From an uncultured Victivallales bacterium (GTDB lineage: Bacteria; Verrucomicrobiota; Kiritimatiellia; UBA8416), in NCBI GenBank assembly GCA_964609395.1, contig CAZSRU010000004.1, positions 6,263 through 70,262 of the forward strand: DNA of 64,000 nucleotides. Reading direction: 5' to 3'. Below, piece by piece: positions 8,990 to 45,623 of this stretch. The translations under genes were made by a program, and so were the position numbers. How positions within the stretch are numbered: the first letter of the stretch is position 1; the number at the start of each line of letters is the position of its first letter. The notes beneath the pieces are model-generated. The model was not told the origin of the DNA. It was given only the letters and a program-made list of their open reading frames with translations, and ran no database searches.

Positions 8990-11698
8990 TCATGCCTTTA
9001 TCGCATAGCGGGCGGCTAAACCCGCGAGTGTCATTTGATCCTGGATCTGGTCGTGGGGGATGAGGAGGTAACGCCAAGGCTTGCCGCCGTTCTCCTTGGC
9101 GTGTGCCGTGGCGTGTTCGCACCATGTTGCGGCTGCATTGGCTTTGGCGATAACGGTTTCATCCGTCATCTCTTTTGACTGTTTTGGTTCGCAGAGCAGT
9201 TTCTCCGTCTGCGTCTCAACGACGAAATCAGGCTCGTAGGATTCGTCATGGCGAAAGTGAATCTGGAAGTCGCCCTTGGCGGGTTTAAACCACTTCAGAA
9301 CGGTGCCTTCATTCTCGAGGATCACCGCGAAACGACGTTCGGAGTCGGAGTCGAATTTCTGGATGGGGTAAAGGCATTTGCCAAAACTGCCGAATACCAT
9401 CGAGCCGATGTGGTTACGCTGGCCCTCGGGAACGGGAACGCGGAAATCACGTGTGTTCTCGTCTGCCGCAGCGGAGTAGTTGTTCGACCGGAGTGTACGG
9501 AAGCCTCTTGTCACGTGGGCCTCGTATTCACTCGCGGATTCGACAAAATGCTGTTGCATTTGAGAATGGATCAGGTTCGCGAGGGCCTGCTGGTGGAACT
9601 GGAGGACATTGATCACGTCGTCTTCCGTGGTCAAGTAAGATTGCAGGCGTGAAACGACCTGCCCTGCCAGCTTATACAGCAGGGCCGCGTGTTCGTCGTA
9701 ACTGACATCGTCGAAGTCGACCAGACCGCGAATCAGGTAGTCCTCTGGACGGTTTTCCATAACGATGCCGGTCCCATCCAGCAACCGATACCGCTGGTGC
9801 TCGTGCAGATGCTGGATCAGGATGTCCTGAGAGACCGGCTGGAGGTTGATATTCCTGACATCGAGGTTAAAGTCATTGTAGCCGCAAGAGACTTCACCTT
9901 TGGGAAGCACCACGATTTTGGGGATATCAATGGAGAGGTCGCAGAAAAGCGTCGTCGTGTCCTTGACGACCTTGGCGACATTCGTGATCTCGTAGACACC
10001 GGCTAATTCGCCTTGGGCCGGACGAACGATCTCCTGAACCTTCTGAACGATCTCCTGCTGAACGGCGGCATCATGGAGCTGATCGCTGCCCTTCAGGCGT
10101 TCGTACTGTTTGATGACTTGAAAGGTCGCCTTGGCAACCGACTGGTCCTCCGGCCTCTCGAAGAGCGTACGCTGCACTGCGGCCGGCTGGCCAAGGGCTG
10201 CGGGACGGGCAGGAACCATTCCACCGGAAAGGGCTTGCTCGAAGGCGCTCTTCACCTCTACGGCTTTGCGTCCGGCGTCGGGAATATCCCGACCGATCAC
10301 GACACCCGCCCGAATAATCGAGGTCGGATCGTTGGCGTGGTCCACGATCTCCTGGAACTTGTCGTGCGAAACGATGGTCAACCGGTCCACCGCCGGAACG
10401 CCTACGCGTTTCCCGTAGGGAAGACGCAAGCCACGCCCGATCGACTGTTCGACGAGAGTGCGCGAATTCGCTGCCCGGAGCGGCACGATCGTGTAGAGGT
10501 TCGTGACGTCCCAGCCTTCCTTGAGCATATTGACGTGGATGACGATCTCAACGGGATTATCCGGATGCTCGACGGTCAGAAGCTGCTGGACAACGTCATC
10601 CTTTTCCTCCCCGCGTATGTTGGAGTGGACTTGGATGACCTTGCCCTTATAGCGCCCCTCAAAGAACGCATCGCCTTCGATCAACTGTTGCAACGTGTTG
10701 GCGTGGGTGGTATCGGTTGCCACGACAAGCATGAACGGCTTGACAATGGGCTTGTCGTTATTGCGGGCGTAGATCTCCAGTTCGACCTTCGTGTTCTCAT
10801 GGATGCGCACGCCATCTTCCAATTTCACCTTTTCCAGCCCCTCGGGCGAGTAGGCGTTGGCATCGAAGTTCTCGCGGGTGGCGACAGCGGGCTCCTTTAC
10901 GAAACCGTCGTCCATTGCCGAAGAAAGCGGATAACTGTAGATGACGTTATTGAAAGGCACCGATCTGCCCCCGGTCTCCACCTGCGGCGTGGCAGTCAAC
11001 TCCAGTCCAAGAATAGGCTTGAGCTCGTTAATAGCGCGTACACCTGCGGTGGCGCGGTAACGGTGACTCTCATCCATGAGTACCACCAGATCTTCCAGGC
11101 CGGCGAGATAATCAAAGTAGCTTTCGCCGATGTACTCGCTTAGACGCTTGATCCGGGGAGCGTTCCCGCCACGCACCTCGCTGTTGATCTTTGAGATATT
11201 GAAAATATTGATGTGGACATCCTGTCCCCAGTCTGTCCCCGGCAACATGTCGGCACGACGCACGCCGCGACCGTCCTCGTAGGTGTCACCGGTCACGACA
11301 AGCGGGGGGTGGACGGCAAACTCACCGACCCCCTTGAAAACATATTTGGGCGTATTGGGTGTAAAATCGGCAATCAGCTTGTTATAGATTGTGAGATTGG
11401 GAGCCAGTACAAAGAAGTTGCGAATACCCTCTGACTGATAGAGGTAGGTTATGAACGCGCCCATGAGGCGCGTCTTTCCGACGCCCGTTGCCAAGGCGAA
11501 GCAAAGCGAAGGGAAATCCCGTTCAAACCCCTCGACCGAAGGGAACTCACTGCGGATCGTGTTCAATGCCGCGGCAGGATCGGCATCCTTGGACAAGTCG
11601 ACGATCTCGCATAAGCGGGCCAGAATTTCGAGAGAATCACGCTGCGGGGTGCGGAGACTCAGGCGATTGCTGATGGAGTTAATGTGCTGAAGCGCCAT
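8990..11698 (-). CDS. res: Type III restriction enzyme Res subunit
   Basis: 902 aa; helicase motif I (LATGVGKTRLMGAF) and II (VLMDESHR); C-terminal PD-ExK nuclease (YEPDFVVETQTEKLLCEPK); start 4 nt after mod stop. Confidence 0.85.
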   Translation of the reverse strand: MALQHINSISNRLSLRTPQRDSLEILARLCEIVDLSKDADPAAALNTIRSEFPSVEGFERDFPSLCFALATGVGKTRLMGAFITYLYQSEGIRNFFVLAPNLTIYNKLIADFTPNTPKYVFKGVGEFAVHPPLVVTGDTYEDGRGVRRADMLPGTDWGQDVHINIFNISKINSEVRGGNAPRIKRLSEYIGESYFDYLAGLEDLVVLMDESHRYRATAGVRAINELKPILGLELTATPQVETGGRSVPFNNVIYSYPLSSAMDDGFVKEPAVATRENFDANAYSPEGLEKVKLEDGVRIHENTKVELEIYARNNDKPIVKPFMLVVATDTTHANTLQQLIEGDAFFEGRYKGKVIQVHSNIRGEEKDDVVQQLLTVEHPDNPVEIVIHVNMLKEGWDVTNLYTIVPLRAANSRTLVEQSIGRGLRLPYGKRVGVPAVDRLTIVSHDKFQEIVDHANDPTSIIRAGVVIGRDIPDAGRKAVEVKSAFEQALSGGMVPARPAALGQPAAVQRTLFERPEDQSVAKATFQVIKQYERLKGSDQLHDAAVQQEIVQKVQEIVRPAQGELAGVYEITNVAKVVKDTTTLFCDLSIDIPKIVVLPKGEVSCGYNDFNLDVRNINLQPVSQDILIQHLHEHQRYRLLDGTGIVMENRPEDYLIRGLVDFDDVSYDEHAALLYKLAGQVVSRLQSYLTTEDDVINVLQFHQQALANLIHSQMQQHFVESASEYEAHVTRGFRTLRSNNYSAAADENTRDFRVPVPEGQRNHIGSMVFGSFGKCLYPIQKFDSDSERRFAVILENEGTVLKWFKPAKGDFQIHFRHDESYEPDFVVETQTEKLLCEPKQSKEMTDETVIAKANAAATWCEHATAHAKENGGKPWRYLLIPHDQIQDQMTLAGLAARYAIKA

Positions 11699-11700
11699 GA

Positions 11701-13485
11701 TTATTTATCTCCCGCAGGTTTGATGGTATCCATGTCGAAAAGTGTCGGGCCGGAATCCTTACCCTTGCCGAATTTCCGCGCCGGGCGCTTCGGCACAACA
11801 GAGGCGACGGAGGCTGCTGCTGGCAAGATTTCTGGCGCTTTTGGTAAGTTACTAATCTCCAGCGAATAATCGTCGTGCCCCCATTCGCACTTTTTCAGAA
11901 CCGCCTTGGGGATCTTCTTTACGGTTAAATTCTCAAACTGGCTGACATCGCACTTGAAGGCGGCACAGCAAACCAGAAGACTTCGATTCGGGCCGACGTC
12001 GTCGCTGAGTTTGATCAGCATCTCCTTGGTCATCATCTGCGTGGTCACATAGATGAAATCCTCCTCCGAGCTACGCCCCTGCTGCCAATATACATCAGGG
12101 TTCGGATCGAAAGTGAAGCCCTCCAGCTTGCACAACGCCTCGGCCAGCATGCCGGCATTGAAGGCGGGATTGATGACGGGGTTATCCCACTCGTCCTTGG
12201 CAATCAGAGACGGCCCAAGCCGGTAGTAGCGGAAGCCGCCGCCACCTTGCCAATTAACTGCATTGCTGATCCCGCCCTTATCCCCGCCGTCAATGACTTT
12301 CTGCAAGCGCGGAATGATGTGCGTGTGGCAATGCTCGCCCAGTTCAACCATGATCCACCGCCGCCCCATCTTATGGGCCACCGCGCCGGTGGTGCCGGAA
12401 CCCGCGAAAGAGTCGAGAACCCAGTCGCCGGGGTTGGATGACAACGAGAGAATGCGATGGACTAGTTTCTCAGGCTTTGGCGTTCCAAAGGGATCATCTT
12501 CGTTGAACGTCTTGGCCTCCTGCATTGCGATCCGATTTTCGCCGACCTCATCATAGTGCCAGGTTGTCATCGCAACGACGCCCTTGTCCTCAATCTCCGA
12601 GAGAAACCGCTTGATGCAGGGTTTGTTGCTGCCATCCTTGCCGAAGTACACGCGGTTGTCTGCCCTGAGCCGCTCGTATGAGGATTTCACATAGGCCCAT
12701 GCTCTGCCCTTTGCTGGCAGCGCAACTCTACCGGAAGGAGTGATGATCTCGTAGATATTGTCGCTGTGGCCGGTCTTTGCAAACTGCTTTCCTCGCTGCC
12801 CCGAAGAAAGACCAATTGTGAAGTCGCCAGGGAACCACGGGCCGCGCCCGTACGACTTGCCAGACTCATCAATGCCGTCGTGATCATCCGACTGTTTGTA
12901 AATTGCATTCTGTGCTTACGTCCGCTCCAGTTTCCCGGGGCGCCATAGCTCTTTGTTCTTGGCGAAGACCAAAATGTGATCGTGGCTCTCTGATAACCAC
13001 ACAGCATTGCTCTGAGGAGATGACTTCTTCCACCAGATCACGTTTGTGACGAAGTTGATGCGACCGAATATCTCGTCCATCAGAACCTTGCAATAGTGTC
13101 CCTCATTATCGTCGAGATTCACCCAGATTGATCCATCATCCGTTAGCAGCCGCCTCAGAATTTCAAGGCGGTCCCGCATCAGTGAAAGCCAAATCGAGTG
13201 TTCCACGCCGTCGTCATAGTGTGTGAATGCGGAACCCGTGTTGTAAGGCGGATCGATGTAGATGCACTTGATCTTGCCGGTGAACTCCTGTTCCAGCGCC
13301 TTGAGGGCGAGAAGGTTGTCGCCGAAGATCAGGCGATTATCGAAGAGATCGTGATTGGTCACGCGCTGGGCGGCGTGATAGGATTTCTCCGGTTCCTCGA
13401 CCAGGATGCGCGGTTCCAGTTGCGGCCGGTTCTCCTTGCCGATCCAGGTCAGTTCAAGCCGTGTGTTATTTTTTGCCATAATCAA
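11701..13485 (-). pseudogene. mod: Type III R-M Mod (N6-adenine/N4-cytosine beta-class methyltransferase) interrupted by one in-frame TAA
   Basis: Table ORFs 12916..13485 (DPPY motif IV: CIYIDPPYNTG) and 11701..12690 (motif I: VLDSFAGSGTTGAV) are in the same frame; the 225 nt between them translate without stops; only stop is TAA (tta on + strand) at 12916-12918; intact length would be ~594 aa. Confidence 0.75.
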
Positions 13486-13517
13486 TCCTTGGTCGTTGCG
13501 CGCGGAGGGGCGTGAGC

Positions 13518-16043
13518 CTATGTAGAGATTCCAATTGAGACAGGCACCTGAAGTTGAATACGAACGGGGGTGTAAAGATCGACTTTTGTTTCCGGTGTTT
13601 CAATCGAAACGATCAAGGCATAACGGGTTGTGCGATCCCACTTGCCTTTCTGGGGGCGTACGCGCCACCAACCAATGAGTGGCGTTATCACGATTAGGTT
13701 TGACTCGGCGAGCTCTGCTGCCGTCCCCGACCAGATATCCGAATGGATAGAACCTTTGTTGCGGGCCTGCCCAAGAAGCCAATGACTCGATGGGCTGTTG
13801 GTGCCCGGATGCCCGTTTTCCTCATCCCTGGCCGCATCATTAATGCGCCGCTCAAACTGCCCTCTATCCTCGGTGGGCGAATTCAGGTCAAAGCGGAGTC
13901 CATGGGAAGCATAACGGTAGCGGTCTTTCCATCCGACCTCGCCGGGACTCGGCTCGATGAAATAGGACAGCGTGACCCGCATACGGACAGTGGCATCCGG
14001 TGCCATCTGCTGCAAGGCTTCCTTTGGCCACGGCAACTCATAGAGATGCATGTCGCGAGTGCGGTAGCCACCGCTCTCCCTTTTATCGAACGGCTGGATT
14101 GCCTCTTGCGCGATAAGAGTCAGTCGGTTGCTGGCTGAATGCAGGGCCTTCTCAAGACTTGGAACCCCGTAGCCACAGGAACGCAACAGGCGTTTATAGG
14201 CCGTCTTGCTTTCGTCAGCGCAAAACTGCTGTTTGAGTGTATCGGTCCAGTCAGCGGAGTGGATCATCAGCCCGCGGACGGTTTCCGGCCAGAAATCAGG
14301 ATAGCGGACGCTGATCTGTGCGGCCATCCAAGCCGCTTGGGCGGTTGCGGCGCTGGTCATGCAAAACGGATAGAAATGTGCCTTTTGAGGATCGAAGAAG
14401 GTGGACAGCAATGACAAGTCGGCGCATTGGCTGATGAAGTTCGATGTCTGTTCCCGTGCCAGATTACCGCCTTCCAGGACAAGCTCTGGTTTAATGGGCC
14501 AACTGTCATTCCAAACCGTTGACGTTGTGCTAAACGGCGAGAGGCCGCCGCTTGGGGCAATGGGTGCATAACCGGACATACTGGGTTCACGAATCTCGTC
14601 GAGCTGTGTGAAAGCCCCGATGGTGAGAGCATTCCATGACTGAGCGGGATCGTGAACGGAATCCGTTTCTTGTGCGTCTGGGTAAGTGCCGCGGCCGTGT
14701 TCTTGCGAATTGCCGGCACTGACAATCAGCAAACGCCTGTGATCATCCTCCGCCCCCGAGCACAACTGATCCAGCGCTCCCGACCAAGACGAGGGGCGTC
14801 CCTGGTCGCGGTTGTCCGTCGTTGTCACAGCCATGCAGCCAATGCGTCGACGTTCGGGTGCTTGTATCTCGGCCTTGTAGATGGATTCTGCCGTGATGTG
14901 TCCCCATAGATGCGGGGCATTCCCTCCAGTTGGAGGGAGGATTTTGACGGACTCAAGGCAATGCGCCAGATTGACAGAACCCTTGCCAAGCATGAGTTCC
15001 TGCAAATCGTTGTATGCAGCGAGCCCCGCCATCAAGGTCCCGTGCTTATCGTGATCGTGTGTCCCCCAGGCTGCATCGAAACTGGCGCAATCGTCGGCGG
15101 ACAAGACGGGGGCCAGCAATGGATGACCGCGGTTGACGCCGGTATCGAGAATGCAAATAGACGTATCGGAATTCGGAACCACGTTGATTCTTTCGAGAAC
15201 GGATTCGACCCATTCGGCTTGATCCTTGTTATCGAGATCAAGCCAGAATGCAGCGGTTTCCTTGGCGCGACGATATTCCGCCACATCGTCGGATAATCGA
15301 CTAATGGACGCAAGCTGATCGCGGTTGACATGCACGAGCTTCACCGCCCTATCCGGGAACTTGATGCAGCCCGGTTTGCAATTAATTTGCTGGCTCGTGA
15401 GTAGGGTTTCAAACCGCTGGATGATGTCGTCACTGTCGGAGCTCAACCAGACTTCACACCATTCCGGGCTAGCGGCGGGGATTAAAGCCTTCTCATCCTG
15501 CCAAAAGGATTCAATTTCCAAGGCTTTACGAATACCGGAAATGCTTTCCAATAACACAGCGTGCTTAGGGTTATCCGATCTACTGTTCTCTTCTGTGGCG
15601 TACTGTTCGATTTTATTAAAGAAGGCGTCCTTCTTGCTGTGCGGGATAAAAATCGTGGCATAGGTAACCTTTTGCCCATCTTCTCCGGAAGATGGGCCGA
15701 CCGGTTCGCACCTGACGTTAAGCAGGCGCGTTCTATCAGCAATATCGCGAGGAACAAGATTCTCGAGGCTCTTGGTTACGAGTTGATACCCAGGCTCCCC
15801 TTTAATCTCGACAAAGACGCCATTTCGACCCGTATGGTGAACCACCTGCTCCTGCTTTGCCTCTGCCCATGCGGCAGCGAGCTGCTGTTTGAGAAAAGCA
15901 CTATGCCCGGCGCGATCGCGTGTGGGTACCGGGGGCGTCGTAACTTGAGATTGGCCGGGAGAGAATGTGCTCGTTTCGAATTGCTTGATTAACAAATGAG
16001 GGAGCTGGCTTTCCATCGCGACTATGCAACCTTCCGTCCACAC
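13518..16043 (-). CDS. subtilisin-like S8 serine peptidase, large cytoplasmic-type (IetS-like)
   Basis: 841 aa; S8 triad elements in D-H-S order: ICILDTGVNRGH, DKHGTLMAGLAAY, CMTSAATAQAAWMAA, plus oxyanion AGNS; no obvious signal peptide; overlaps upstream AAA ATPase gene by ~20 nt. Confidence 0.7.
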   Translation of the reverse strand: MWTEGCIVAMESQLPHLLIKQFETSTFSPGQSQVTTPPVPTRDRAGHSAFLKQQLAAAWAEAKQEQVVHHTGRNGVFVEIKGEPGYQLVTKSLENLVPRDIADRTRLLNVRCEPVGPSSGEDGQKVTYATIFIPHSKKDAFFNKIEQYATEENSRSDNPKHAVLLESISGIRKALEIESFWQDEKALIPAASPEWCEVWLSSDSDDIIQRFETLLTSQQINCKPGCIKFPDRAVKLVHVNRDQLASISRLSDDVAEYRRAKETAAFWLDLDNKDQAEWVESVLERINVVPNSDTSICILDTGVNRGHPLLAPVLSADDCASFDAAWGTHDHDKHGTLMAGLAAYNDLQELMLGKGSVNLAHCLESVKILPPTGGNAPHLWGHITAESIYKAEIQAPERRRIGCMAVTTTDNRDQGRPSSWSGALDQLCSGAEDDHRRLLIVSAGNSQEHGRGTYPDAQETDSVHDPAQSWNALTIGAFTQLDEIREPSMSGYAPIAPSGGLSPFSTTSTVWNDSWPIKPELVLEGGNLAREQTSNFISQCADLSLLSTFFDPQKAHFYPFCMTSAATAQAAWMAAQISVRYPDFWPETVRGLMIHSADWTDTLKQQFCADESKTAYKRLLRSCGYGVPSLEKALHSASNRLTLIAQEAIQPFDKRESGGYRTRDMHLYELPWPKEALQQMAPDATVRMRVTLSYFIEPSPGEVGWKDRYRYASHGLRFDLNSPTEDRGQFERRINDAARDEENGHPGTNSPSSHWLLGQARNKGSIHSDIWSGTAAELAESNLIVITPLIGWWRVRPQKGKWDRTTRYALIVSIETPETKVDLYTPVRIQLQVPVSIGIST

Positions 16044-16990
16044 GCATTTTGACGGTCCGCAATCGCTGCAATCAATTCACAAGCCTCGACATGCTTTTTA
16101 TCGCTAAGAACCACACTCTTAATCGCATCCCGGCAGGCATGGTCAATCTCTGCATGGCTCAAGCCGTTACAAGCGTCGATCACACGTTTCCATGAGAAGC
16201 GTGGCGCGATAAATGTACCCAGCACATTTTCAATCAAAGGTTTGACCTGATCGACTGATGGGCGCTCGTAATGCAGCACATCGTCGAAACGGCGGAACAA
16301 GGCATGGTCCAGCAAGCCGGGATTGTTTGTGGCGGCAATAATCAGGCTGTCTGATGTGTCCTGCTCGATGAATTGAAGAAAGGCATTTAGAACCCGCCGG
16401 ATTTCGCCGACGTCGTTATCGTGCGAGCGATCTCCGCCAATAGCATCGAACTCATCAAAGAGATAAACGCCATGAGCCTGCTGCATTAGATCGAATATCT
16501 GCCGAAGCTTAGCGCCCGTCTCCCCCATAAATTTAGTAACAAGGCGATCCACCTGGATGGTGTTCAGTGAAAGATTCAATTCCTTGGCCAAGACTTCCGC
16601 TGTCATGGTCTTGCCGGTTCCGGGAGGACCAACGAGCAGAATCTTGCGACGGTGAACCAATCCATGCTGCTTCAGCTTGTTCTGCTGCCGATATTCATGG
16701 ATGATTCGATCAAGCCGGGATCTGATGGTCGCCGGCACAACCATAGCCGAGATTGGCGTTAGAGGCTCCGTGGACAGGACCAGCCCTTTGAGATCAGCAG
16801 GGAAGCTAAGCAGCCGCGGACCCGCCTTCTTGCGTTCGGAGTCTATGATTTCGCGTAAATCGTGGGCCAAGGCGGCATGGCCCTGTCGAGCCTCCCCTGC
16901 GGCCAACTGCAATGAAACCGAGTAAAAGCGTTCGGCGTCATCACTGAAGTGCGACCGTATCAAAGACTTAAGTTGTTCGGCAGTAGCCAT
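16022..16990 (-). CDS. AAA family ATPase (IetA-like)
   Basis: 322 aa; Walker A LLVGPPGTGKTMTAEVLAKEL, Walker B VYLFDEFDAI; sits in AT-richer block directly upstream of S8 peptidase. Confidence 0.8.
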   Translation of the reverse strand: MATAEQLKSLIRSHFSDDAERFYSVSLQLAAGEARQGHAALAHDLREIIDSERKKAGPRLLSFPADLKGLVLSTEPLTPISAMVVPATIRSRLDRIIHEYRQQNKLKQHGLVHRRKILLVGPPGTGKTMTAEVLAKELNLSLNTIQVDRLVTKFMGETGAKLRQIFDLMQQAHGVYLFDEFDAIGGDRSHDNDVGEIRRVLNAFLQFIEQDTSDSLIIAATNNPGLLDHALFRRFDDVLHYERPSVDQVKPLIENVLGTFIAPRFSWKRVIDACNGLSHAEIDHACRDAIKSVVLSDKKHVEACELIAAIADRQNACGRKVA

Positions 16991-17111
16991 ATTAACCTCT
17001 CAATAAAACGTGGTCGTAGCTTAGCAGAAGCTGCGTTTAATTACATCACAAAACAGCTCTTGTCATAATTAGTAGGAAGCGAAACGATGCGCAATGCCCA
17101 CCCCTCAACGT

Positions 17112-37045: not shown

Positions 37046-37166
37046 CGTGGCGCATGGTACAGGCAATTACACTTATTTGGCAAGCGCGTTCTTCCGCCAC
37101 CGTGGTTCAGAAAAGCAACCGTCAACGCGCTTGCATTGCCCGCCATTTTCTGGGAATCTTCCCGCC

Positions 37167-39255
37167 ATGGCTATACAACCCCTTTTCGATGAACCGTTTC
37201 TGCGTGCCCAATGGGGCTCGGAGTTCGAGTCCTTCCAGGAAAGTCCCGAGGCCGCCGCCCTGCTGGCACGTCTGCGGGCCTGGTCGGATCGCGAGCAGCT
37301 CAACGAGCGGTCGTCCGAGACCGCCTTCATCCAGCGCTTTTTCGTGGAAACGTGGGGCTACCGCCTGCAAGGCCATGCCGAAACGGGCGACGCCTATACC
37401 TGCCGCCCGCAATTCGAGGTGGCCCGCGCGGGCCAGTCCGGCGGCATCGGCTTTGCCGATCTGGCACTGGGCCGTTTCGGCCGCGATGGCATCCCCCAGG
37501 TGCTCTGCGAATTCAAGGATATCCGCTCCGGGCTCGACGCCCGCCAGCTCCGCAAGAATAACGACCGCTCACCCGTGGACCAGTGCTTCGACTAGCCATC
37601 GAGAAGACCTTCTACCGCGAATACCACGACTACCGCCAGTTCGTCTTCCGCACCCTTGTCGAAGCCAATCCGGATTTCCCCGGCACGCGTGGCCGTCTTG
37701 TGCGCCTGACCCAGCGCTTTCTCGACCGCTGCATCTTCATCCTCTTCTGCGAGGATATGGGCCGCGTCCTGCGCTATCCGCCCGAGCTGCTGCGCGATCT
37801 GCTGATGGAGGAAAGCCAGAGCCGCTTCTACAACCCCGAGGGAACGCGCCCCTGGGATGCGATGCGCGACCTCTGCCGGGCCATGCGCGAGGGTGGCCAT
37901 TTCGGCCCGCATACGATTGACCGCTTCAACGGTGGACTCTTCGAGCCAGACCCCGAACTCGATGCCTTCCCGAATGGGTCGTGCGCTATCTCGTCGAGCA
38001 GACCCTCGGCACGCGCCTCGACGACATCAAGGCCGAACTCGGCTTTACCGCCCTGCCGCCGCTCGACGAGGCCGCTCTTGCCGAATACCGGGCCTACCGC
38101 AATGACCGCCGCCGCACGGCACCCGCCGCCAGCGCGCATCTCGAGTTCCTCCGCAAATACCGGTTCCGGCTCGACCGCGTGCGCATCGTGGATCCCGCCT
38201 GCGGCTCCGGGGCCTTCCTGATCCAGGCGCTCAACCGCCTTGTCGAGGAATACCGCTGGGTCATCGCCGAGCAAGCCCGCATCGAGGGCGAACAGAGCCT
38301 CTTCGATCAGGACTCCGTCATCCGTTCCATTCTCGCCCACAACATCTACGGCGTGGACATCAACCCCGAATCCGTCGAGATCACCAAGCTCGCGCTATGG
38401 CTGCACACCGCGGCCCCCGGCAAACCGCTCTGCTCGCTGGATGCCAACATCCGCTGCGGCAACAGCCTGGTCGGACCCGACTTCGCCGAGTTCTACCGCC
38501 AGAAGCACACCACGCTCTTCGAGCAGGCCGACGAGAACGAGCGCGAGCGCATCAACGCCTTCGACTGGGAAGCCGCCTTTGCCGACGTCTTCACCCACGG
38601 CGGCTTCGACTGCGTCGTCGGCAATCCGCCCTACATCAAGCTCCAGCACTTCCGCCGTACCCAACCGGACATCGCCGATTACTTAGTAGGGCAAGCTTCC
38701 AGCTTGCCAAATCGCAAGCAAGATGCTTGGGCTACTTACGAAAGCACCCAGACCGGCAACTTCGACATGTACCTGCCCTTCATCGAAAAGGGGATCCGAC
38801 TGCTGCGCCCCGAAGGCCGCATGGGCTACATCGCGCCAAACGTCTGGATGGTCAACGACTACGGCAAGGCCCTGCGCGGTCTCGTGCGCCGTACCCGCGC
38901 GCTCGACCGCTGGGTCGATTTCAAAAGCCACCAGATCTTCGACGAAGCCATCACCTACACCGCCCTCCAGTTCTTCTACGACCGCCCCGACACCCCCTTC
39001 ATCGCGGCCCAATGGCGCTACACCCTCCGCGACGCCAACGTAACGGAAGCCTACGACGGCAAACGCCTTCTCAAAGACCTCCTCACCCTCCGCACCACCA
39101 CCGACACCCCCCTCCGCGACCGCATCCTCACCCTCGACGCCGAAATCACCGCCCTGGACACCACCATAGCCACCCGCGAAACCGCCCTAAACGCCATTAC
39201 CTACCGCCTCTACCGCCTAACGCCGGAAGAGATTGCAACGGTGGAGGCGGGGTGA
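37167..39255 (+). pseudogene. MmeI-family Type IIG restriction-modification enzyme gene disrupted by at least two frameshifts
   Basis: Three table ORFs in three frames (37167..37595, 37583..38221, 37981..39255). N-terminal PD-ExK region (GIGFADLALGRFGRDGIPQVLCEFKD). MmeI-like helical region (IEKTFYREYHDYRQF...CIFILFCEDMG). Gamma-class MTase motif I VDPACGSGAFL and motif IV VVGNPPYIK. C-terminal ...YRLYRLTPEEIATVEAG. Confidence 0.7.
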
Positions 39256-39872
39256 TGAATGCCGGTGTGAACACCGCCAGCAAAACGCCCGCCGCGCCCC
39301 CTCGTCCTGCGCCCCTTGTTCACAAGGGGCCTGTTCACAAGGGGCCAAGAGAAAAGGTGCAAGGCTACCGCTTCCCCACCCGCGATTACCGCCAACCCGC
39401 CTTCTACCTGATCACGATGAGCGCCCTCGACCGCCGCCCGCGTTTCGCCACCTGCGCCGAGAACCGCACCACGCTGACCGAGGACGGCCAGCTCGTTTAC
39501 GACCTCTGGCACCGCATCGCCAAAGACTACCCGCAAATTGCGCTTTCGACGCTGGTCATCATGCCCGACCGCCTGCACGGCATCGTCTCTCGATTCATCT
39601 CGCCGGGGGAAAAGGACATCGCCCGCGCCGCGCTGGATGCGGGCGGCGTGGTCATCCTCATGAAACCCGACGGATTCCCGCCCTGCTTCAAGCCCCACGG
39701 CAAATACTTCGACCTCTGTGTCCAAGGCCGGCTCCTCATCCTCGCCTGCCGCCCGCCCGCGGCAGGCAACACCCCCGTCACCCGCGATCTCTGCCTCGCC
39801 ATGAACCGCTGGTGCCAGCACGTTGCAAAGCCACTATGCCCCGTGGATGGAGAAGATGAGGGCAGGGAATGA
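39255..39872 (+). CDS. IS200/IS605-family (RAYT-like) transposase-related protein, probably inactivated derivative
   Basis: 205 aa; YRFPTRDYRQPAFYLITMSALDRRPRF and VIMPDRLHGIV (HuH degenerate to RLH); 5' end contains two copies of palindromic ccccttgttcacaagggg REP-like unit; start overlaps stop of Type IIG gene. Confidence 0.45.
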   Translation: MNAGVNTASKTPAAPPRPAPLVHKGPVHKGPREKVQGYRFPTRDYRQPAFYLITMSALDRRPRFATCAENRTTLTEDGQLVYDLWHRIAKDYPQIALSTLVIMPDRLHGIVSRFISPGEKDIARAALDAGGVVILMKPDGFPPCFKPHGKYFDLCVQGRLLILACRPPAAGNTPVTRDLCLAMNRWCQHVAKPLCPVDGEDEGRE

Positions 39873-39890
39873 GCATGAATCGAAAACAGC
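39853..39890 (+). repeat. partial/degenerate copy (rep0) of the ~145-bp cassette repeat
   Basis: gggcagggaatgagcATGAATCGaaaacagc resembles core ctgggaatgtgataggaatatgaatcATGAATGCGgaac of rep1-3; lies at the GC-content drop. Confidence 0.3.
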
Positions 39891-39899
39891 AATACCAAC

Positions 39900-40697
39900 G
39901 TGGCAATCGGAAGCAGCGTTATTACAATCGGCAACTATGCGTTCTCAGGCTGCAGAAAACTGACTAACATTACAATTCCAGACAACGTTAGCACCATCGG
40001 TTCATATGCATTCCAATACTGCGACAGCCTGGCCAACGTGATCATGGGCACAAGTGTTTCTTATATCGGTTCCTTTGCTTTTGAAAACTGCTATGGCTTA
40101 CTAAGCGTCGTGATTCCTGACAACGTCACTGATATTGGCAACTGGGCTTTCGGAGGCTGCACAAATCTGGCCCGTGTAACAATCGGCAACGGCGTCACCA
40201 CCATCGGGTCCTACGCTTTCTACTGGTGCTCAACTCTCACCGTTGTGTATTTCACTGGTGACGCACCTGCTCCCGATGCTTCAGTATTCGAAAACTCCCC
40301 CGCCACCATCTACTACTTGCCTAACACTATCGGCTGGGGCGACACATATTCCACCCGTCCCGCCAAACTCTGGAATCCCACGTTCACATTCATCGATATC
40401 AACGCAGGCATCATGACCTATACTATTGCAGGTACTCCGGAGATTCCGATCGCGATTGAAGTTCGTACGAATCTCCTCTCAGGCGAATGGACTCGGCTCT
40501 CCACAACTAACCTTACTGAGGGATTCCTTAATATCCAAATCTCCCGACTCAACCAACCATGCTGCTCTGTTTTATCGTATCGTCGGCCCGTGAGTGGAGC
40601 AGCAGAGCTTTTTTGGGGCTCACCGCTCTTCACCTTGAACTCCCTAATGGGGCAGCGCGATCAATTATTGTGCATGGTAATGACTCTGGGAATGTGA
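39900..40697 (+). CDS. BspA-type leucine-rich-repeat protein, probably a fragment
   Basis: GTG start, no RBS or signal peptide; repeated ~22-aa units (I..IGNYAFSGC..L..ITIPDNVSTIGSYAFQYC..L..V); low-GC; 3' end runs into repeat rep1. Confidence 0.5.
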   Translation: MAIGSSVITIGNYAFSGCRKLTNITIPDNVSTIGSYAFQYCDSLANVIMGTSVSYIGSFAFENCYGLLSVVIPDNVTDIGNWAFGGCTNLARVTIGNGVTTIGSYAFYWCSTLTVVYFTGDAPAPDASVFENSPATIYYLPNTIGWGDTYSTRPAKLWNPTFTFIDINAGIMTYTIAGTPEIPIAIEVRTNLLSGEWTRLSTTNLTEGFLNIQISRLNQPCCSVLSYRRPVSGAAELFWGSPLFTLNSLMGQRDQLLCMVMTLGM

Positions 40698-40775
40698 TAG
40701 GAATATGAATCATGAATGCGGAACTTACAAGGCGTTGTGTGCGGGCGATGACGGAGACCGGCGAGGGATCGCTGG
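40628..40775 (+). repeat. ~145-bp interspersed repeat, copy 1 (rep1)
   Basis: ~85-90% identical to copies at 41803-41950 and 43979-44122 over ...gcgatcattttgtgcatggcaatgactctgggaatgtgataggaatatgaatcatgaatgcggaacttataaggcgttgtgtgcgggcgatgacggaaaccgg.gaggg. Confidence 0.75.
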
Positions 40776-40921
40776 TGCCGCTGTGCCGTAAAATCGTGCG
40801 CAATTTCCACGTGGCCGAGGTTCCGCATCGGAGCAGGCAGACGAAAACAAAGCAAAGCGTCTTCTTGCAAACGTGACCAGCGTCGGTCATAGTCTATCGC
40901 AAAAGCGCAGGCAGGTACTGG

Positions 40922-41722
40922 ATGACAGTTCAGAATTCAATTACTTTTGGCGACTACATCGTCTTTGTCGATGAAACCGGCGATCACGGCTTAAACAGCA
41001 TCAGCAAGGAATTCCCGCTGTTTGGTTTGGCATTTTGCGTCGTTCGAAAATCCGAGTACATCGGCACCATCACGCCCGCTCTGCGTCGGCTGAAGTTTCA
41101 GACATTCGGGCACGATATCATCGTACTGCATGAGCACGATATCAGGAAACGCGAGAATGCCTTTGCCATGATGAGCAGGCAACCTCGTGAGGCATTTCTA
41201 AATGCGCTAACAAAAATCATCGAATCGGCCGCATTTAGACTCATCACGGTCATTATCGATAAACGGCTTTTGTCTCCTTCGCTGGAAGCGCAAAACCCTT
41301 ATCACATGGCGCTTTTGTTTGGTCTTGAACGTGTATACCGCATGCTATCAGAATGCGGGCAGGCCGACACATTTACGCATATTGTCGTTGAGTCGAGGGG
41401 CAAGCGGGAAGATGCTGAACTCGAACTGGAGTTCCACCGCATCACGGAAGGTGAGAATACGTTCGCCAAACCATTGCCGTTCCGTCTGATCATGGCCGAT
41501 AAACGGACCAATTCCGAAGGGCTTCAGCTTGCGGATATGGTTGCACGCCCCGTTGCGCTTTCAATCCTTCGCCCTGATCAGGCAAACCGAGCCTTTGATG
41601 TCTTACGTGACAAATTCTGGACCAGCGCCGACGGCATCATGGATGATTACGGTCTTAAAGTGTATCCGACAAAAACGAAAGGGCCACCGGGAAGTCCCAG
41701 TAGCCCTTCGCCGAACGGGTAG
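40922..41722 (+). CDS. DUF3800-family protein
   Basis: 266 aa; N-terminal YIVFVDETGDHGL and C-terminal SEGLQLADMVARP signature regions; low-GC; flanked by rep1 and rep2. Confidence 0.6.
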   Translation: MTVQNSITFGDYIVFVDETGDHGLNSISKEFPLFGLAFCVVRKSEYIGTITPALRRLKFQTFGHDIIVLHEHDIRKRENAFAMMSRQPREAFLNALTKIIESAAFRLITVIIDKRLLSPSLEAQNPYHMALLFGLERVYRMLSECGQADTFTHIVVESRGKREDAELELEFHRITEGENTFAKPLPFRLIMADKRTNSEGLQLADMVARPVALSILRPDQANRAFDVLRDKFWTSADGIMDDYGLKVYPTKTKGPPGSPSSPSPNG

Positions 41723-41802
41723 TCCCATTCCAAATCTGGTTTGATACTAGCCTGTCTTAGTGAAATAGCCAATCATTTTTTCAGTTGGCATTTGGGGTAC
41801 TC

Positions 41803-41950
41803 CATTCTCCCCTTTGAATTGCCGAGGGGCCGCGATCATTTTTGTGCATGGCAATGCGCTGGGAATGTGATAGGAATATGGATCATGAATGCGCAACTTA
41901 TAAGGCGTTGTGTGCGGGCGATGACGGAAACCGGTGAGGGCACGCTGGTG
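41803..41950 (+). repeat. ~145-bp interspersed repeat, copy 2 (rep2)
   Basis: see rep1; carries conserved short ORF start ATGAATGCGcaacttataaggcgttgtgtgcgggcgatgacggaaaccggtgagggc (MNAQLIRRCVRAMTETGEG). Confidence 0.75.
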
Positions 41951-41999
41951 ATGGTTTTTTGAGAATTGAACGGAGTATGACATTGGAAGGAGGCCGGTT

Positions 42000-43280
42000 A
42001 TGGCCAAGATTGAAGGGTTCAGGGTACGCAACTTTGGCGTGCTGAGGGATGTTACGCTTGGGAAATTGTGGAATTTGCAGACTGCCCAGCCGTTGACCCC
42101 CATGACTGCGGTTATCGGCAAGAACGGCGTCGGCAAAAGCACGTTGTTCAATGCATTCGGCTTTCTCGCGGATGCCTTGAAATCGGGTGTCGAGGAGGCT
42201 TGCGACGCGCGCGGGAGAGGCGGATTCGACAGGATTCGGTCTCAAGGCATCAAAGAGCCGGTAGAGTTCGAGATCTACTACAAGGAAGAGGGCAGTACAC
42301 GTCCAATCACGTACTCACTCTCGATGGATCTGGACAAGACCGGCCGTCCCTATGTGAAGCAAGAACGGTTGCGGCAGCGGCGCAAGGGCCAGAAGCATGG
42401 GTGGCCATTCTCGTTTCTGATGCTGAACGATGGCAAGGGTGTCGCGTGGAAAGGCGAGGATGCCGGCTGGGAGGTGAACGAGGACAAGGAGTTGTTCGAT
42501 CTGGCAGGTCTTATTGACGAGGTGCAGCGCAAGGAAGGTCCTGAAACCGAAGTCGTTGAGTTGCAGGACAAGCGTAAACTCGGCATTGCCACACTCGGGT
42601 CTTTGAAACAACATCCCCGCATCTCGCTGTTCCGGCAGTTTATCGAAGGTTGGTATCTGAGCTACTTCACGCCTGACGCCGCCCGAGGATTGCCGCTGGC
42701 CGGTCCGCAACGCCATTTGAACATTCACGGCGACAATGTCGGTAATGTCGTTCAGTACATGGAGCGGGAATACCCCGCTAAGTTCCAGACCGTACTGGAT
42801 CGCATCTCGAAGAAGATTCCGGGTATCGATAAGATCACCTGGGATAAGACGAAAGACGGCCGGTTGCTGCTCTGTTTTAACGACAAGGGATTCGAAGATC
42901 CCTTTTATGCCCAACAAATGTCGGACGGCACACTGAAAGTATTCGCCTACCTTCTTTTGCTTGAAGACCCTTCGCCCCCGCCGTTCCTATGCATTGAGGA
43001 ACCAGAGAACGGGCTCTATCACAAGTTACTCGAGACTCTGGCGGCTGAGTTCCGTGCCCATGCAACGGGAAGAAAAGGCGGTTCGCAGGTTTTCGTCACT
43101 ACGCATCAACCGTATTTTGTCGATGCACTGACCCCCGAAGAGGTGTGGGTATTGGAAAAGGGCAAAGACGGTTTCTCAACCGTCCGTCGCGCTAGCGACG
43201 ATCAAACCGTACAGAACATGGTAACCGAAGGGTTGCCCCTGGGCGGCCTGTGGTACAGCGACTATCTTGACGCGAGGTAA
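42000..43280 (+). CDS. AAA/ABC-type ATPase of two-gene defence-like module (AbiLi / PARIS AriA-like)
   Basis: ATG after GGAAGGAGG; Walker A VIGKNGVGKSTLFNAFGFL; ABC signature-like QMSDGTLKV; Walker B/D-loop PPFLCIEEPENGLY; H-loop VFVTTHQPYF. Confidence 0.75.
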   Translation: MAKIEGFRVRNFGVLRDVTLGKLWNLQTAQPLTPMTAVIGKNGVGKSTLFNAFGFLADALKSGVEEACDARGRGGFDRIRSQGIKEPVEFEIYYKEEGSTRPITYSLSMDLDKTGRPYVKQERLRQRRKGQKHGWPFSFLMLNDGKGVAWKGEDAGWEVNEDKELFDLAGLIDEVQRKEGPETEVVELQDKRKLGIATLGSLKQHPRISLFRQFIEGWYLSYFTPDAARGLPLAGPQRHLNIHGDNVGNVVQYMEREYPAKFQTVLDRISKKIPGIDKITWDKTKDGRLLLCFNDKGFEDPFYAQQMSDGTLKVFAYLLLLEDPSPPPFLCIEEPENGLYHKLLETLAAEFRAHATGRKGGSQVFVTTHQPYFVDALTPEEVWVLEKGKDGFSTVRRASDDQTVQNMVTEGLPLGGLWYSDYLDAR

Positions 43281-43284
43281 TCGC

Positions 43285-43944
43285 ATGCACTTTGAAATAC
43301 TGGTTGAAGACCAATCCGGGAAAAAGCTGTTGGACGAGATTGTGCCGCGCATCATTGGTGCTCCCCACACCTTTCGAGTACTGCCTTACAAGGGGATTGG
43401 AAAAATCCCGAAAGGATTGAAGCCTGGTTCTGATGCGAGCAAACGAATCCTTCTGGATCAACTGCCCCGCATTCTCAAAGGGCACGGAAAGACCTTTGCC
43501 GGCTACGGTCCGGGCTATCTTGCGGCGGTGGTTATTGTCTGTGATCTGGATCGCAAGTGTTTCCATGAATTCCGCCAAGAGCTTCTCGGAATTTTGGATG
43601 CTTGCGACCCGAGACCAGATACCCGATTCTGCCTTGCTGTCGAGGAGGGAGAGGCATGGCTTCTTGGAGACCGCGAGGCTATTCGAGCGACCTATCCGAA
43701 TGCAAAGTCCGCAGTTCTTGATGGCTACGTTCAGGACAGCATCTGCGACACTTGGGAATTGCTTGCAGACGCAATCCATCCCGGAGGCTCAAGAGCGTTG
43801 ATTGCTGCGGGATGGCAGGCCGCTGGAGCTGCCAAGTCGGCCTGGGCCACAGCGATTTCTCCTCACATGAAGATTGAAGACAACAATTCGCCAAGTTTTC
43901 ACTATTTTCGAAGCAAATTGCTAGAACTTGCTGGACAGAATTAA
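43285..43944 (+). CDS. DUF4276-like protein (predicted Toprim/OLD-like partner of the ATPase; AbiLii-like)
   Basis: ATG 43285 seven nt after GAGGT and 5 nt after ATPase stop; N-terminus MHFEILVEDQSGKKLL typical of DUF4276 (conserved E in ILVE); 219 aa. Confidence 0.55.
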   Translation: MHFEILVEDQSGKKLLDEIVPRIIGAPHTFRVLPYKGIGKIPKGLKPGSDASKRILLDQLPRILKGHGKTFAGYGPGYLAAVVIVCDLDRKCFHEFRQELLGILDACDPRPDTRFCLAVEEGEAWLLGDREAIRATYPNAKSAVLDGYVQDSICDTWELLADAIHPGGSRALIAAGWQAAGAAKSAWATAISPHMKIEDNNSPSFHYFRSKLLELAGQN

Positions 43945-43978
43945 TGGTCTGTTCTGTCTCGCAATTAAGGGGGTGTCG

Positions 43979-44122
43979 CCATTCTCCTCTTTAAATTGCC
44001 GTGTGTCGGCCGCGATGGTTGTTGAGCATGGCAATGACTCTGGGAATGTGATAGGAATATGCATTATGAATGCGGAACTTATAAGGCGTTGTGTGCGGGC
44101 GATGACGGAAACCGGCAAGGGC
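43979..44122 (+). repeat. ~145-bp interspersed repeat, copy 3 (rep3)
   Basis: see rep1; its short ORF (MNAELIRRCVRAMTETGKGLI) ends TGA directly abutting ATG of next gene (TGAATG). Confidence 0.75.
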
Positions 44123-44131
44123 TTGATATGA

Positions 44132-44410
44132 ATGAAGGGCTATGTTAGCTTGTTCCGCACGGGGGTAAACGAAATGGTTATGGTTCAGGCACGAATTCTC
44201 GATCCTACACACTTGGAACTGGCAAAGCCGATTGCGGCCGGGCACGAACGCAATATCTTTGTTCTGATTACGGAACAACCGCATGCGGATGCCGAGAAAC
44301 AGCAGTGGATGGATGCCTCTTCGGAATCCCTGCAGAATGCATACGGTGACACGGAACCAGAGTACACCCCCTCGATGGTACGCGAGGCCAATCCGGAGCA
44401 CCGGGCATGA
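44132..44410 (+). CDS. small DUF104/antitoxin-like protein (tentative)
   Basis: 92 aa; N-terminal MVMVQARILDPTHLELAKPIAAGHERNIFVLI resembles SpoVT/AbrB-like or DUF104 antitoxin N-termini; no partner toxin seen. Confidence 0.3.
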   Translation: MKGYVSLFRTGVNEMVMVQARILDPTHLELAKPIAAGHERNIFVLITEQPHADAEKQQWMDASSESLQNAYGDTEPEYTPSMVREANPEHRA

Positions 44411-44609
44411 AGGAAGGCGTTATTCGGCTGGGGTTTCTCGCGGTCTTACCGAACAAGCGAATCGTGGGAGCAATCGGCCATATTGCTCCTGAGCGACACA
44501 CGCGCCTTCTGCGAACGCTTAGCAGGCATCTGATCGGGAATAGCCCCCTTTCCTGACATTCTCTCTCGCCGCCATCGTCAATTCTAACAACACGGAATGG
44601 CACCGACCC

Positions 44610-45623
44610 TTACCAGCGCAGGTGGCCTCGGCGCAGGTCGCCTGCCGCGCCCGCGGCCACGGCCAGGTTGAGCAGGGTGCGTGCGAGCGCGCCGGGCAGC
44701 GCCTTCCAGACGGCAGCCCCGCGACACTGCCGCAACTGCCGCCAGGGCACGGGCAGCATGATGCCGATCCGCCGCCATGGGACCCGGCGGCCATGCTCGC
44801 GGATCAGACGACGGAACCAGTCCGGGTCAGCCTGGGTCTGGACACGCATCCACCCGCCCACCGCGATGCCCTCGCGCGCCAGCGCTTCCGCCTTCTCGAA
44901 AAGCAGGATGTTGCACAGCGTGCCGATCAGGATCCGCTTCTCGTGGCGGTAAACCGAACCCAGGCTCGTCTCGGCCTCGAACACGTGATACGCGCCTGCC
45001 GCCCGCACCAGTCTCGACTCGTTCTCGGGATGCGTGAATCCGTCGGTCACCAGCATGGCCTTGATGAACCCGTCCTCCACCAGCATGGGTTCCGGCAGGA
45101 AAATGGCGCGCATGGCCGCGGCACGGGCGGCATAGAGCTGCCCGCAGAGTTTCGGGGGGCCGGCCGCCGCCAGCACCGAGGCGGAAAGCGATAGGCGGTC
45201 CCGTACGCGGCTGACCTTGCCTCCGGCAAGATCCTTGACCGGCTGGTCGACGGCGGCGACCGCCTCGGGATTTGCAGCCAGCGCATCGATCAGCGCGCGC
45301 AGGGTGTCCGGCTGCGGGAGGCGTATGTCCGCATCGGCCAGGATCAGGATATCGGCCGCCGCCGGAGCCAGTGAGTGGACGAACTGGTTCCAAGCGTTGG
45401 CCTTGCCTGCCTGCTCCAGGACGACGACGCGATGCGGCACGTCGAACCCGTCCAAGGCCTCGCGCGCCCGCTCCGCCGTGCGGTCGGTCGAGCCGTTCAC
45501 CACCACAACCAGGCTGGCCTCGCCATCCAGCGTCCGCCAGAAGTCCTGCCGCCGTACATCCGCAAGCGTGTCGCCGATGCCACGCTCCTCGTTATGCGCC
45601 ATCATGCCAAGACAGATATTCAT
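44610..45623 (-). CDS. glycosyltransferase family 2
   Basis: 337 aa; GT-A N-terminal domain (ICLGMMAHNEERGIGDTLADV...LVVVVNGSTDRT), DxD ILILADADI. Confidence 0.75.
   Translation of the reverse strand: MNICLGMMAHNEERGIGDTLADVRRQDFWRTLDGEASLVVVVNGSTDRTAERAREALDGFDVPHRVVVLEQAGKANAWNQFVHSLAPAAADILILADADIRLPQPDTLRALIDALAANPEAVAAVDQPVKDLAGGKVSRVRDRLSLSASVLAAAGPPKLCGQLYAARAAAMRAIFLPEPMLVEDGFIKAMLVTDGFTHPENESRLVRAAGAYHVFEAETSLGSVYRHEKRILIGTLCNILLFEKAEALAREGIAVGGWMRVQTQADPDWFRRLIREHGRRVPWRRIGIMLPVPWRQLRQCRGAAVWKALPGALARTLLNLAVAAGAAGDLRRGHLRW

Follow-up and report, generated by a model that had tools for sequence, protein, structure and literature searches.

A recurrent head with the start of a small gene precedes unrelated modules in a low-GC island of an uncultured Victivallales bacterium

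A stretch of 64,000 nucleotides from an uncultured Victivallales bacterium (GenBank assembly GCA_964609395.1, contig CAZSRU010000004.1; hereafter, the window) was analyzed for a repeat that recurs within a low-GC island. Three direct copies of this repeat, which we call the head, stand in the same orientation, one ahead of each of three unrelated gene modules. In other genomes the repeat consistently flanks variable cargo as well, so the cassette-like organization proposed in an earlier reading of the sequence (the original prediction) is borne out. The head is a composite of about 170–190 nt, made up of a distal part (La), a non-coding block (B) and the start of a small-protein gene (R). We suggest that it serves as a portable expression or regulatory unit with a leader small open reading frame (ORF), and that it also provides homology for RecA-type shuffling of cassettes; this is the interpretation to which we incline, and we consider it somewhat probable.

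An nhmmer profile of the head, built from 15 copies and run on the whole 64 kb, placed the three direct copies at 40612–40776, 41791–41949 and 43970–44125 and found no other; by comparison with other loci, copy 1 reaches approximately 40798. According to a repeat search, the ungapped core is 103 nt long with 81–92% identity among the window copies. A MAFFT alignment of these copies contains long invariant blocks; of the invariant 20-mer GGGAATGTGATAGGAATATG, the window has 3 occurrences and 100 shuffles have none. The near-identical, same-orientation triplet that had been described was therefore recovered by repeat search, alignment, 20-mer count and profile alike. The profile did not pick up a fourth, degenerate copy supposed to lie at 39853–39890, even with the threshold relaxed to E ≤ 1, nor did it reveal a head remnant at the right edge of the island.

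The three parts of the head differ in conservation. La is about 60 nt long, starts soon after the stop codon of the preceding gene, occurs as distinct subtypes and is the most divergent part, with a mean identity of 71% over the 15 copies. B comprises the 39 nt ahead of a conserved ATG (1 nt is deleted in head 2); its mean identity is 89%, and no coding signature was found in any of its six frames. R begins at the conserved ATG, is 88% identical and covers 19–29 codons in the window copies.

R opens a small-protein gene beginning MNAELIRRCVRAMTETGEG, and the coding signature begins at the conserved ATG. Substitutions in R fall on codon positions 1/2/3 in the proportion 9/8/23. Its variant codons are 22 synonymous versus 17 non-synonymous, with an expected synonymous share of 26%, and the other two sense frames give synonymous to non-synonymous counts of 6:31 and 6:30. 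The small-protein family (MNAELIRRCVRAM / MKADLIKRCVRAL) combines this codon-position bias with a peptide that is conserved in divergent relatives. A sister subfamily (subfamily 2), reading MKADLIKRCVRALAEAGDGNFDGLCEQLIQDE(Q/R)RKGH..., is about 50% identical and has many synonymous codon differences, while residues C9, R11, A12, G17, G19, L24 and C25 are invariant across both subfamilies; R8 is also among the residues that the sister subfamily has retained. Since the peptide has been kept there despite the synonymous changes, the sister subfamily provides independent proof of coding. R forms the 5′ portion of a genuine gene for a small protein, which is under selection at the amino-acid level. 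The original prediction had placed the conservation at the DNA or RNA level and not at the protein level; because R shows codon-position bias, a synonymous excess and a sister subfamily, this was wrong for the first 19–29 codons, and it was right for the tails only.

The family is tiny, with 13 matches among 1.84 billion representatives. The first of the three small ORFs in the window is annotated as a gene in public assemblies (P0004). The fullest small proteins have about 40–55 aa, for which a three-helix bundle is predicted (pLDDT 74). A reading of the small ORF as the N-terminal part of a longer protein was rejected: apart from two repetitive chance matches, the matching proteins are only 35–83 aa long.

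With one recurrent exception, the small ORF and the cargo point the same way, and in most heads −1 to 45 nt separate the stop codon of the ORF from the start of the cargo. Overlap or abutment was found in window head 3 (TGAATG, as had been correctly noted), L004 (TAATG), L017 (−1) and L021_h2 (ATGA); most other heads have a gap of 33–45 nt, and in L014_a it is 126 nt. The short ORF thus frequently touches the start codon that follows or overlaps it. Of the options named at the outset, a shared regulatory leader is the one that fits. The point at which R gives way to cargo-specific sequence ranges from codon 3 to about codon 37. The tails cluster by cargo, one of them accompanying ParE/Phd in three loci and another AbiL in two. 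Each cargo was therefore attached to a head a single time, at an arbitrary place anywhere from codon 3 to about codon 37, and the two subsequently spread as a unit.

The consensus of B consists of a −35-like TGGCAA, a 17-nt spacer, a −10-like TAGGAA and 8 nt leading to the ATG; in head 1 it reads TGGTAA-17 nt-TAGGAA-8 nt-ATG. It also contains a direct-repeat pair, RGGAATRTG, 11 nt apart. The geometry (T)TGGCW-17 nt-TAGRAN-7/8 nt-ATG is common to both subfamilies, and their spacers are unrelated. A generic sigma-70 scan flags TTGGCT-17-TAGAAT in L023. Full subfamily-2 heads have, in addition, two 15-bp palindromes TTCCGACCGTCGGAA spaced 31 bp apart; 10 of the 11 occurrences of this palindrome in 250 kb are inside heads, and the eleventh is upstream of the first island gene in L022. 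Based on these features, B most likely holds a promoter and a regulator-binding site, both predicted.

A census by exact 20/21-mer scans and called small proteins, which gives a lower bound, found about 20 further heads in related contigs from Verrucomicrobia UBA6015, Victivallales and unbinned metagenomes (Lentisphaerota/Verrucomicrobiota). All of them are intergenic, in low-GC islands (about 50–52% GC vs about 60–65% in the hosts) and 5′ of co-oriented toxin–antitoxin (TA) or defence modules, with one recurrent exception in which the cargo is reversed. The cargo includes Gp49/HTH (HigBA-like), PhdYeFM/ParE (three loci), RhuM (PDC-S05, two loci), AbiLi/AbiLii (two loci), HEC-01, NYN/OST-HTH, a module with a PD-T4-6-like kinase and the recurrent reversed two-gene module. 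Several heads are at unrelated chromosomal sites, beside SOUL/DUF3592, Rrf2/L31 and URO-D. Plasmid and phage BLAST searches and a viral-contig scan with the repeat gave no match. The exact-match loci L003 and L005 were discarded as chance matches within unrelated sequence.

Subfamily-2 loci show the same architecture, with several heads standing before HicAB/RES, AAA_21+DUF3226 and M48 peptidase modules; these islands also carry Type ISP restriction–modification (R-M) and SIR2 genes. In L023 the heads recur before HicAB/RES and other modules, each with about 230 nt of non-coding DNA and the small ORF, which in one copy is shortened after 6 codons. The island of L021, on a 5.04-Mb contig, contains Type ISP R-M, SIR2, AAA_21+DUF3226, the small gene and two heads; in the terminal head the ORF is shortened, and its stop codon and the start codon of an M48 peptidase gene overlap as ATGA. 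This island is bracketed by M48 peptidase paralogues (1–1911 and 13464–15332) with 36% amino-acid identity. At 6048–6567 of L023, an element of about 515 bp, bounded by inverted repeats of 35 bp that are 97% complementary, interrupts one head at CTAG, with the −35-like element on one side and the −10-like element on the other; the insertion looks like a miniature inverted-repeat transposable element (MITE) or an insertion sequence (IS) remnant.

The position of the window island is a hotspot for variable cargo, anchored by an R-M gene. The 3′ end of the methylase in the left flank is conserved in loci L001 and L004 (82–88% nucleotide identity to the window), and the cargo behind it is wholly different among the window, L001 and L004. 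Since three genomes share the flank and differ in cargo, the hotspot shows presence/absence polymorphism. Heads are absent from the more distant methylase-anchored loci L018–L020, though variable defence cargo is present there; the head family is thus phylogenetically narrow.

Several comparisons bear on how the arrays form. Some heads are mosaics: L009_b is 100% identical to L002_a in R and 75% in La, and L001_c, L009_b and L014_a are 90% identical in La and 80–88% in R. These discordant groupings of La and R indicate recombination inside heads. Compared with L010, L009 has an extra 'R-ParE/Phd-RhuM fragment-La' segment inside a head. Arrays end in a copy that retains the left part only in L002/L010, L004, L007/L008, L009 and L017. 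Such left-only copies are cut at profile positions 61, 75–79, 92 and 95, and L001_a at 109. In L007 a single TA cassette lies between a full and a left-only head, and the similarity of the two heads continues for 80 nt more at 97% identity and then at 85%. The varied break points and the duplication beyond the consensus fit homology-driven integration better than a fixed site-specific crossover.

Based on the above results, we propose the following scheme. A portable head (La + B + R) would be set before each defence or TA module. B would drive transcription starting at or just before the ATG of the small ORF, giving a leaderless or near-leaderless transcript, and operator sites would lie upstream of the promoter or overlap it. 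The small ORF would be the first cistron, acting as a leader that passes transcription, and sometimes coupled translation, to the cargo downstream, so that unrelated cargo would come under one common control. Because B and R together (about 110 nt) show ≥90% identity in every head, the heads can double as homology patches. RecA-type recombination between them, within an array or with incoming or excised circles, could then add, delete and shuffle modules; for example, a circle with a head and its cargo may integrate into a resident, possibly shortened, head. The outcome would be integron-like arrays with no need of an integrase or attC. Promoter activity, leaderless transcription, co-regulation and homology recombination are all inferred in this scheme. 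A bolder version, which we find rather doubtful, is that the heads constitute a cassette platform of Lentisphaerota/Verrucomicrobiota, independent of an integrase or served by an unknown recombinase, in which one promoter and small-ORF unit is both expression signal and recombination site. Such a platform would let defence and TA modules accumulate, be reshuffled and pass from one chromosomal hotspot to another, and would be an independently evolved functional analogue of the integron.

It should be noted that a number of observations weigh against the proposed scheme. The census of heads is possibly biased by the way it was made. The sigma-70 scan found no promoter in the three heads of the window, and the −10-like TAGGAA has no canonical final T. 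The model of the small protein gave no significant PDB match (all Foldseek E > 3). All window copies encode shortened versions, with 29, 22 and 19 conserved codons, and elsewhere the ATG is missing or the frame is shifted in some copies (L004_a, L001_c, L015_a); given such copies, the peptide itself may be dispensable. As for recombination, the window heads are not homogenized in La (54–70% identity), which implies that it has not been frequent there, the longest perfect stretches that they share are 22–27 nt, marginal for RecA, and neither an empty site nor a circular intermediate was seen. Finally, a wobble-aligned antisense frame within R scores similarly to the sense frame (11 synonymous:14 non-synonymous). 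An antisense ORF through the head would need to run through B, which shows no coding constraint, and would be broken by the 1-nt indel in head 2; it was rejected, and the sense frame is preferred on context only.

Among the alternatives, the one that survives best is a site-specific cassette system in which an unknown recombinase encoded elsewhere in the genome uses the head, most plausibly La/B, as its recombination site. A unit of 'R + cargo + La' would leave its array as a circle and enter a resident head between the La and the B/R of that head; the system would be a functional counterpart of the integron with another type of site. In several comparisons La tracks the upstream neighbour and R the downstream cargo, the extra segment in L009 resembles an insertion of this kind, the 3′ end of RhuM is joined directly to La in three contexts, several arrays finish with a La-only copy, and the conservation of B exceeds that expected of a plain promoter. 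On the other hand, the terminal copies break at five profile positions (61, 75–79, 92, 95 and 109), the R–cargo junctions are as variable as described above, the heads have no inverted repeats, and the L007 duplication runs 80 nt past the family consensus, as homology-driven events would. In addition, Pfam and NCBIfam scans of the window ORFs of at least 90 aa supported by third-position GC (GC3) revealed no integrase, resolvase or transposase, and no tyrosine or serine recombinase was found in the flanks of the other loci (up to 10 kb on each side where the contig allows). The only transposase near any head is of the IS630 type (HTH + DDE_3) and is inserted in the head-bearing array of L015 (3722–4851). 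Taken together, we regard a site-specific system as unlikely.

A slightly less likely possibility is that the heads are passive relics, i.e., an ancestral small gene and its promoter were duplicated, the cargo was later replaced illegitimately and no common function exists now. The many shortened, frameshifted or start-less small ORFs and the variable junctions agree with this. However, B and R have stayed at 88–89% identity while the adjoining La drifted to 71%, the −35/−10/ATG geometry has been kept across two subfamilies with unrelated spacers, and the paired palindromes are maintained in subfamily-2 heads. Moreover, heads are found at several unrelated chromosomal sites and in several hosts, always 5′ of a module.

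Much less support can be given to a non-autonomous transposable element, MITE-like or similar to repetitive extragenic palindromic (REP) sequences, that carries an outward promoter and is scattered through the genome; we consider it very improbable. The head is indeed short, multi-copy and intergenic, and the island is adjoined by a degenerate ORF resembling the N-terminal half of REP-associated tyrosine transposases (RAYTs), with an HUH motif that reads RLH. Furthermore, REP-like 41-nt hairpin units (CCCCTTCGCCCC..GCCGATGCGGCGATCGGC..) occur at the distal edge of subfamily-2 heads, both in tandem and as inverted pairs (L023 1558–1638, 4686–4726 and 5721–5910; L021 10203–10246 and 13265–13308). 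Nevertheless, the heads lack terminal inverted repeats, have variable right ends and are oriented according to the cargo that follows them, and a conserved protein-coding gene makes up part of the unit. No head was found outside the island in the 64 kb, including a second low-GC island at 9–17 kb. The RAYT-like ORF, for which no Pfam match was obtained, sits between the methylase and the island in the window genome only and was found in none of the other head-bearing loci.

The original prediction had also allowed for integron-like cassette boundaries and for a small RNA. An integron array without an integrase, of the type known as clusters of attC sites lacking integron integrases (CALINs), would explain the same orientation and the 0.8–2.1-kb spacing of the repeats, taken as attC sites, and chromosomal integrons typically carry TA and defence genes; that defence systems are encoded in integron cassettes is known (bioRxiv 10.1101/2024.07.02.601719). 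About half of the copies have the motif GTTGAGC, which fits GTTRRRY, where La meets B, but TTTGTGC or ATTGTGC replaces it in the rest, including window heads 1 and 2. According to bioRxiv 10.64898/2026.03.17.712381, what defines attC sites is not their sequence but a conserved palindrome with extrahelical bases, together with the GTT crossover triplet. Single-strand folds of the three copies on both strands gave z-scores of −0.63 to +1.03 against 200 shuffles. With RNAalifold, the 15 copies gave a joint fold of −13 kcal/mol over some 170 nt; the covariation term was unfavourable (+0.43), and of 28 pairs only 1 was compensatory. A hairpin proposed earlier, cgcaac-ttataagg-gttgtg, has its central pair in 1 of the 15 copies, shows no compensatory change and folds no better than shuffles. 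Subfamily-1 heads contain no inverted repeats. No RYYYAAC...GTTRRRY pair 50–160 nt apart was found on either strand of 39800–44700, and the domain scans revealed no intI within the 64 kb. With half of the repeat coding and all of these structural searches negative, attC sites were rejected, and the CALIN explanation is scarcely credible and refuted as far as sequence analysis allows. The small-RNA option failed likewise: Rfam gave no gathering-threshold match in the 64 kb and none in the heads at E ≤ 5, and covariation was lacking.

Integrons are, to our knowledge, the only well-understood builders so far of ordered arrays of single-gene modules. Like sedentary chromosomal integrons and CALINs, the head arrays consist of tandem, same-orientation, single-function modules with a recurring element of 60–190 nt, their cargo is dominated by TA and anti-phage genes, and their content varies at a fixed chromosomal position. 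Unlike attC, the recurring element is not structured, stands 5′ of the module and is composed of a promoter-like block and a coding start; moreover, no IntI is present here and the junctions do not lie at a fixed crossover.

Leader ORFs that couple translation to a downstream gene are known from ORF-11 in attI1 of class 1 integrons and from the leader peptides of attenuated operons. The small ORF resembles them in its position directly upstream of the cargo, often overlapping or abutting the start codon (TGAATG, TAATG, ATGA), and, like them, it may bring ribosomes to cargo without an initiation region of its own. In contrast to such leaders, it derives from a conserved gene for a protein of about 40–55 aa with amino-acid-level selection and a sister subfamily, and it is repeated before every module instead of standing at the entry of the array. 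WYL regulators of the BrxR/CapW type form a conserved regulatory cassette upstream of many unrelated defence systems, and the palindromic, operator-like sites of subfamily 2 are reminiscent of these modules. The heads, however, encode no WYL or helix-turn-helix regulator, only a helical protein of 20–55 aa with no detectable DNA-binding fold, and they are tandemly iterated within one island.

Exchange of cassettes through conserved 5′ regions is known from the 70-bp repeats upstream of the trypanosome variant surface glycoprotein (VSG) genes and from the conserved 5′ untranslated and signal-peptide region of Mycoplasma vsp/vlp genes. As in these families, a conserved upstream region and the first 20–30 or so codons precede unrelated sequence, with recombination within the conserved region. 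In each of those gene families the downstream parts are variants of a single protein family and serve antigenic variation, whereas here they are unrelated defence or TA operons, preceded by a small ORF of its own that contains the conserved codons. Correia elements (CREE), REP sequences and bacterial interspersed mosaic elements (BIMEs), and MITEs are short multi-copy intergenic repeats able to affect the expression of adjacent genes; unlike them, the heads have no terminal inverted repeats, are not dispersed and are partly coding. Literature searches for comparable head-type arrays returned nothing relevant, and we know of no described family with this anatomy. The arrays are best described as organized like an integron array and behaving like the 5′ region of a recombining multigene family, while belonging to neither.

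Cargo of the kind found in integrons (here TA pairs, AbiL, HEC-01, RhuM, DUF3800) is arrayed around an entirely different recurring element. If the heads are common control regions, they would define a regulon of unrelated defence modules in little-studied bacteria of the Planctomycetes–Verrucomicrobia–Chlamydiae (PVC) group, and the operator sequences and the small protein would give a handle on its regulator. If they also mediate exchange, defence islands could be assembled and diversified by homology alone. The head profile also offers a cheap marker for new defence and TA candidates, as several of the genes that follow heads as cargo could not be assigned to any family.

The features of the island and its surroundings are listed in Table 1.

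Table 1. Features of the low-GC island and its flanks in the window (positions in the 64,000-nt stretch).
Feature	Position	Strand	Description
MmeI/Eco57I-type R-M gene, left flank	37047–39255	+	Three ORFs; Pfam Eco57I, MmeI_Mtase, MmeI_hel
High-GC ORF, weakly RAYT-like	39267–39872	+	NCBIfam E = 1e-3, 19 bits vs cutoff 80
Low-GC variable island	39873–44556	.	Composition profile and segment GC values; contains the cassette-like array
BspA-type leucine-rich repeat (LRR) gene fragment, left-most unit	39879–40697	+	Pfam LRR_5 E = 4e-36, residues 9–131
Head 1	40612–40798	+	La 40612–40672; B 40673–40711; R 40712–40798 (29 conserved codons)
Small ORF 1	40712–40876	+	54 aa, MNAELTRRCVRAMTETGEGSLVPLCRKIV and unrelated tail; stop 45 nt before DUF3800 start
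Cargo 1, DUF3800 protein	40922–41722	+	Pfam DUF3800 E = 2e-14
Head 2	41791–41950	+	La 41791–41846; B 41847–41884; R 41885–41950 (22 conserved codons)
Small ORF 2	41885–41962	+	25 aa; stop 37 nt before HEC-01A start
Cargo 2, candidate defence pair HEC-01	42000–43944	+	AAA_21 ATPase 42000–43280; DUF4276 43285–43944
Head 3	43970–44125	+	La 43970–44026; B 44027–44065; R 44066–44122 (19 conserved codons)
Small ORF 3	44066–44131	+	21 aa; TGA (44129–44131) directly abuts next ATG (44132–44134)
Cargo 3, two overlapping small ORFs	44132–44556	+	92 aa, 44132–44410; 49 aa, 44407–44556
Family-2 glycosyltransferase, right flank	44610–45623	-	Pfam; host-like GC

The GC drop reported for the island was reproduced by the composition profile, with 52.2% inside versus 62.5% and 63.7% in the flanks. 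The domain labels proposed for the cargo held for LRR_5, DUF3800 and AAA_21 + DUF4276, the last two being HEC-01A (E = 5e-194) and HEC-01B (E = 2e-92) according to PADLOC, with which Pfam agrees. The label 'DUF104-like' for 44132–44410 has no support in Pfam or NCBIfam at E ≤ 1, and neither of the cargo 3 ORFs has a Pfam, NCBIfam or PADLOC match; judged by their arrangement, they look TA-like. In head 2 only, the small ORF ends in a terminator-like hairpin with a T-run (41930–41949); within 41930–41959 the hairpin is followed by GATGGTTTTT, and it may form an attenuator between the small ORF and HEC-01A. On the minus strand at 41672–41739, inside the 3′ end of the DUF3800 ORF, a 14-bp GC-rich hairpin precedes a T-run; it has weak sub-threshold Rfam matches to BjrC68 and ctRNA_pGA1 and may be a bidirectional terminator.

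The left end of the island lies inside a gene fragment. The LRR fragment has no start codon or N-terminus, an in-frame stop is found at 39876–39878, and the 15-copy profile detects no head upstream of it. The overlap between the first repeat and the LRR ORF that had been described is mechanically true; nevertheless, an alternative frame at the end of the fragment (40426–40593) terminates in ...AALFYRIVGP*, about 20 nt before head 1. The fragment is probably frameshifted near its 3′ end, and the overlap is probably read-through of a frameshifted gene fragment. As the island begins inside a gene fragment and has no terminal partial head, it would seem to be part of a donor array whose outer ends were joined illegitimately. 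A tRNA-targeted island was rejected, as there is no tRNA gene in the window. The three ORFs of the R-M gene in the left flank overlap (37047–37595, 37583–38221 and 37981–39255), and this split points to frameshifts, a pseudogene or assembly errors.

The second low-GC island of the window (9000–17000, 52–59% GC) carries, as mentioned, no copy of the head according to the profile. It holds a Type III R-M system with res at 8990–11698 and a mod gene split into 11701–12690 and 12916–13485, together with unassigned ORFs at 14910–15992.

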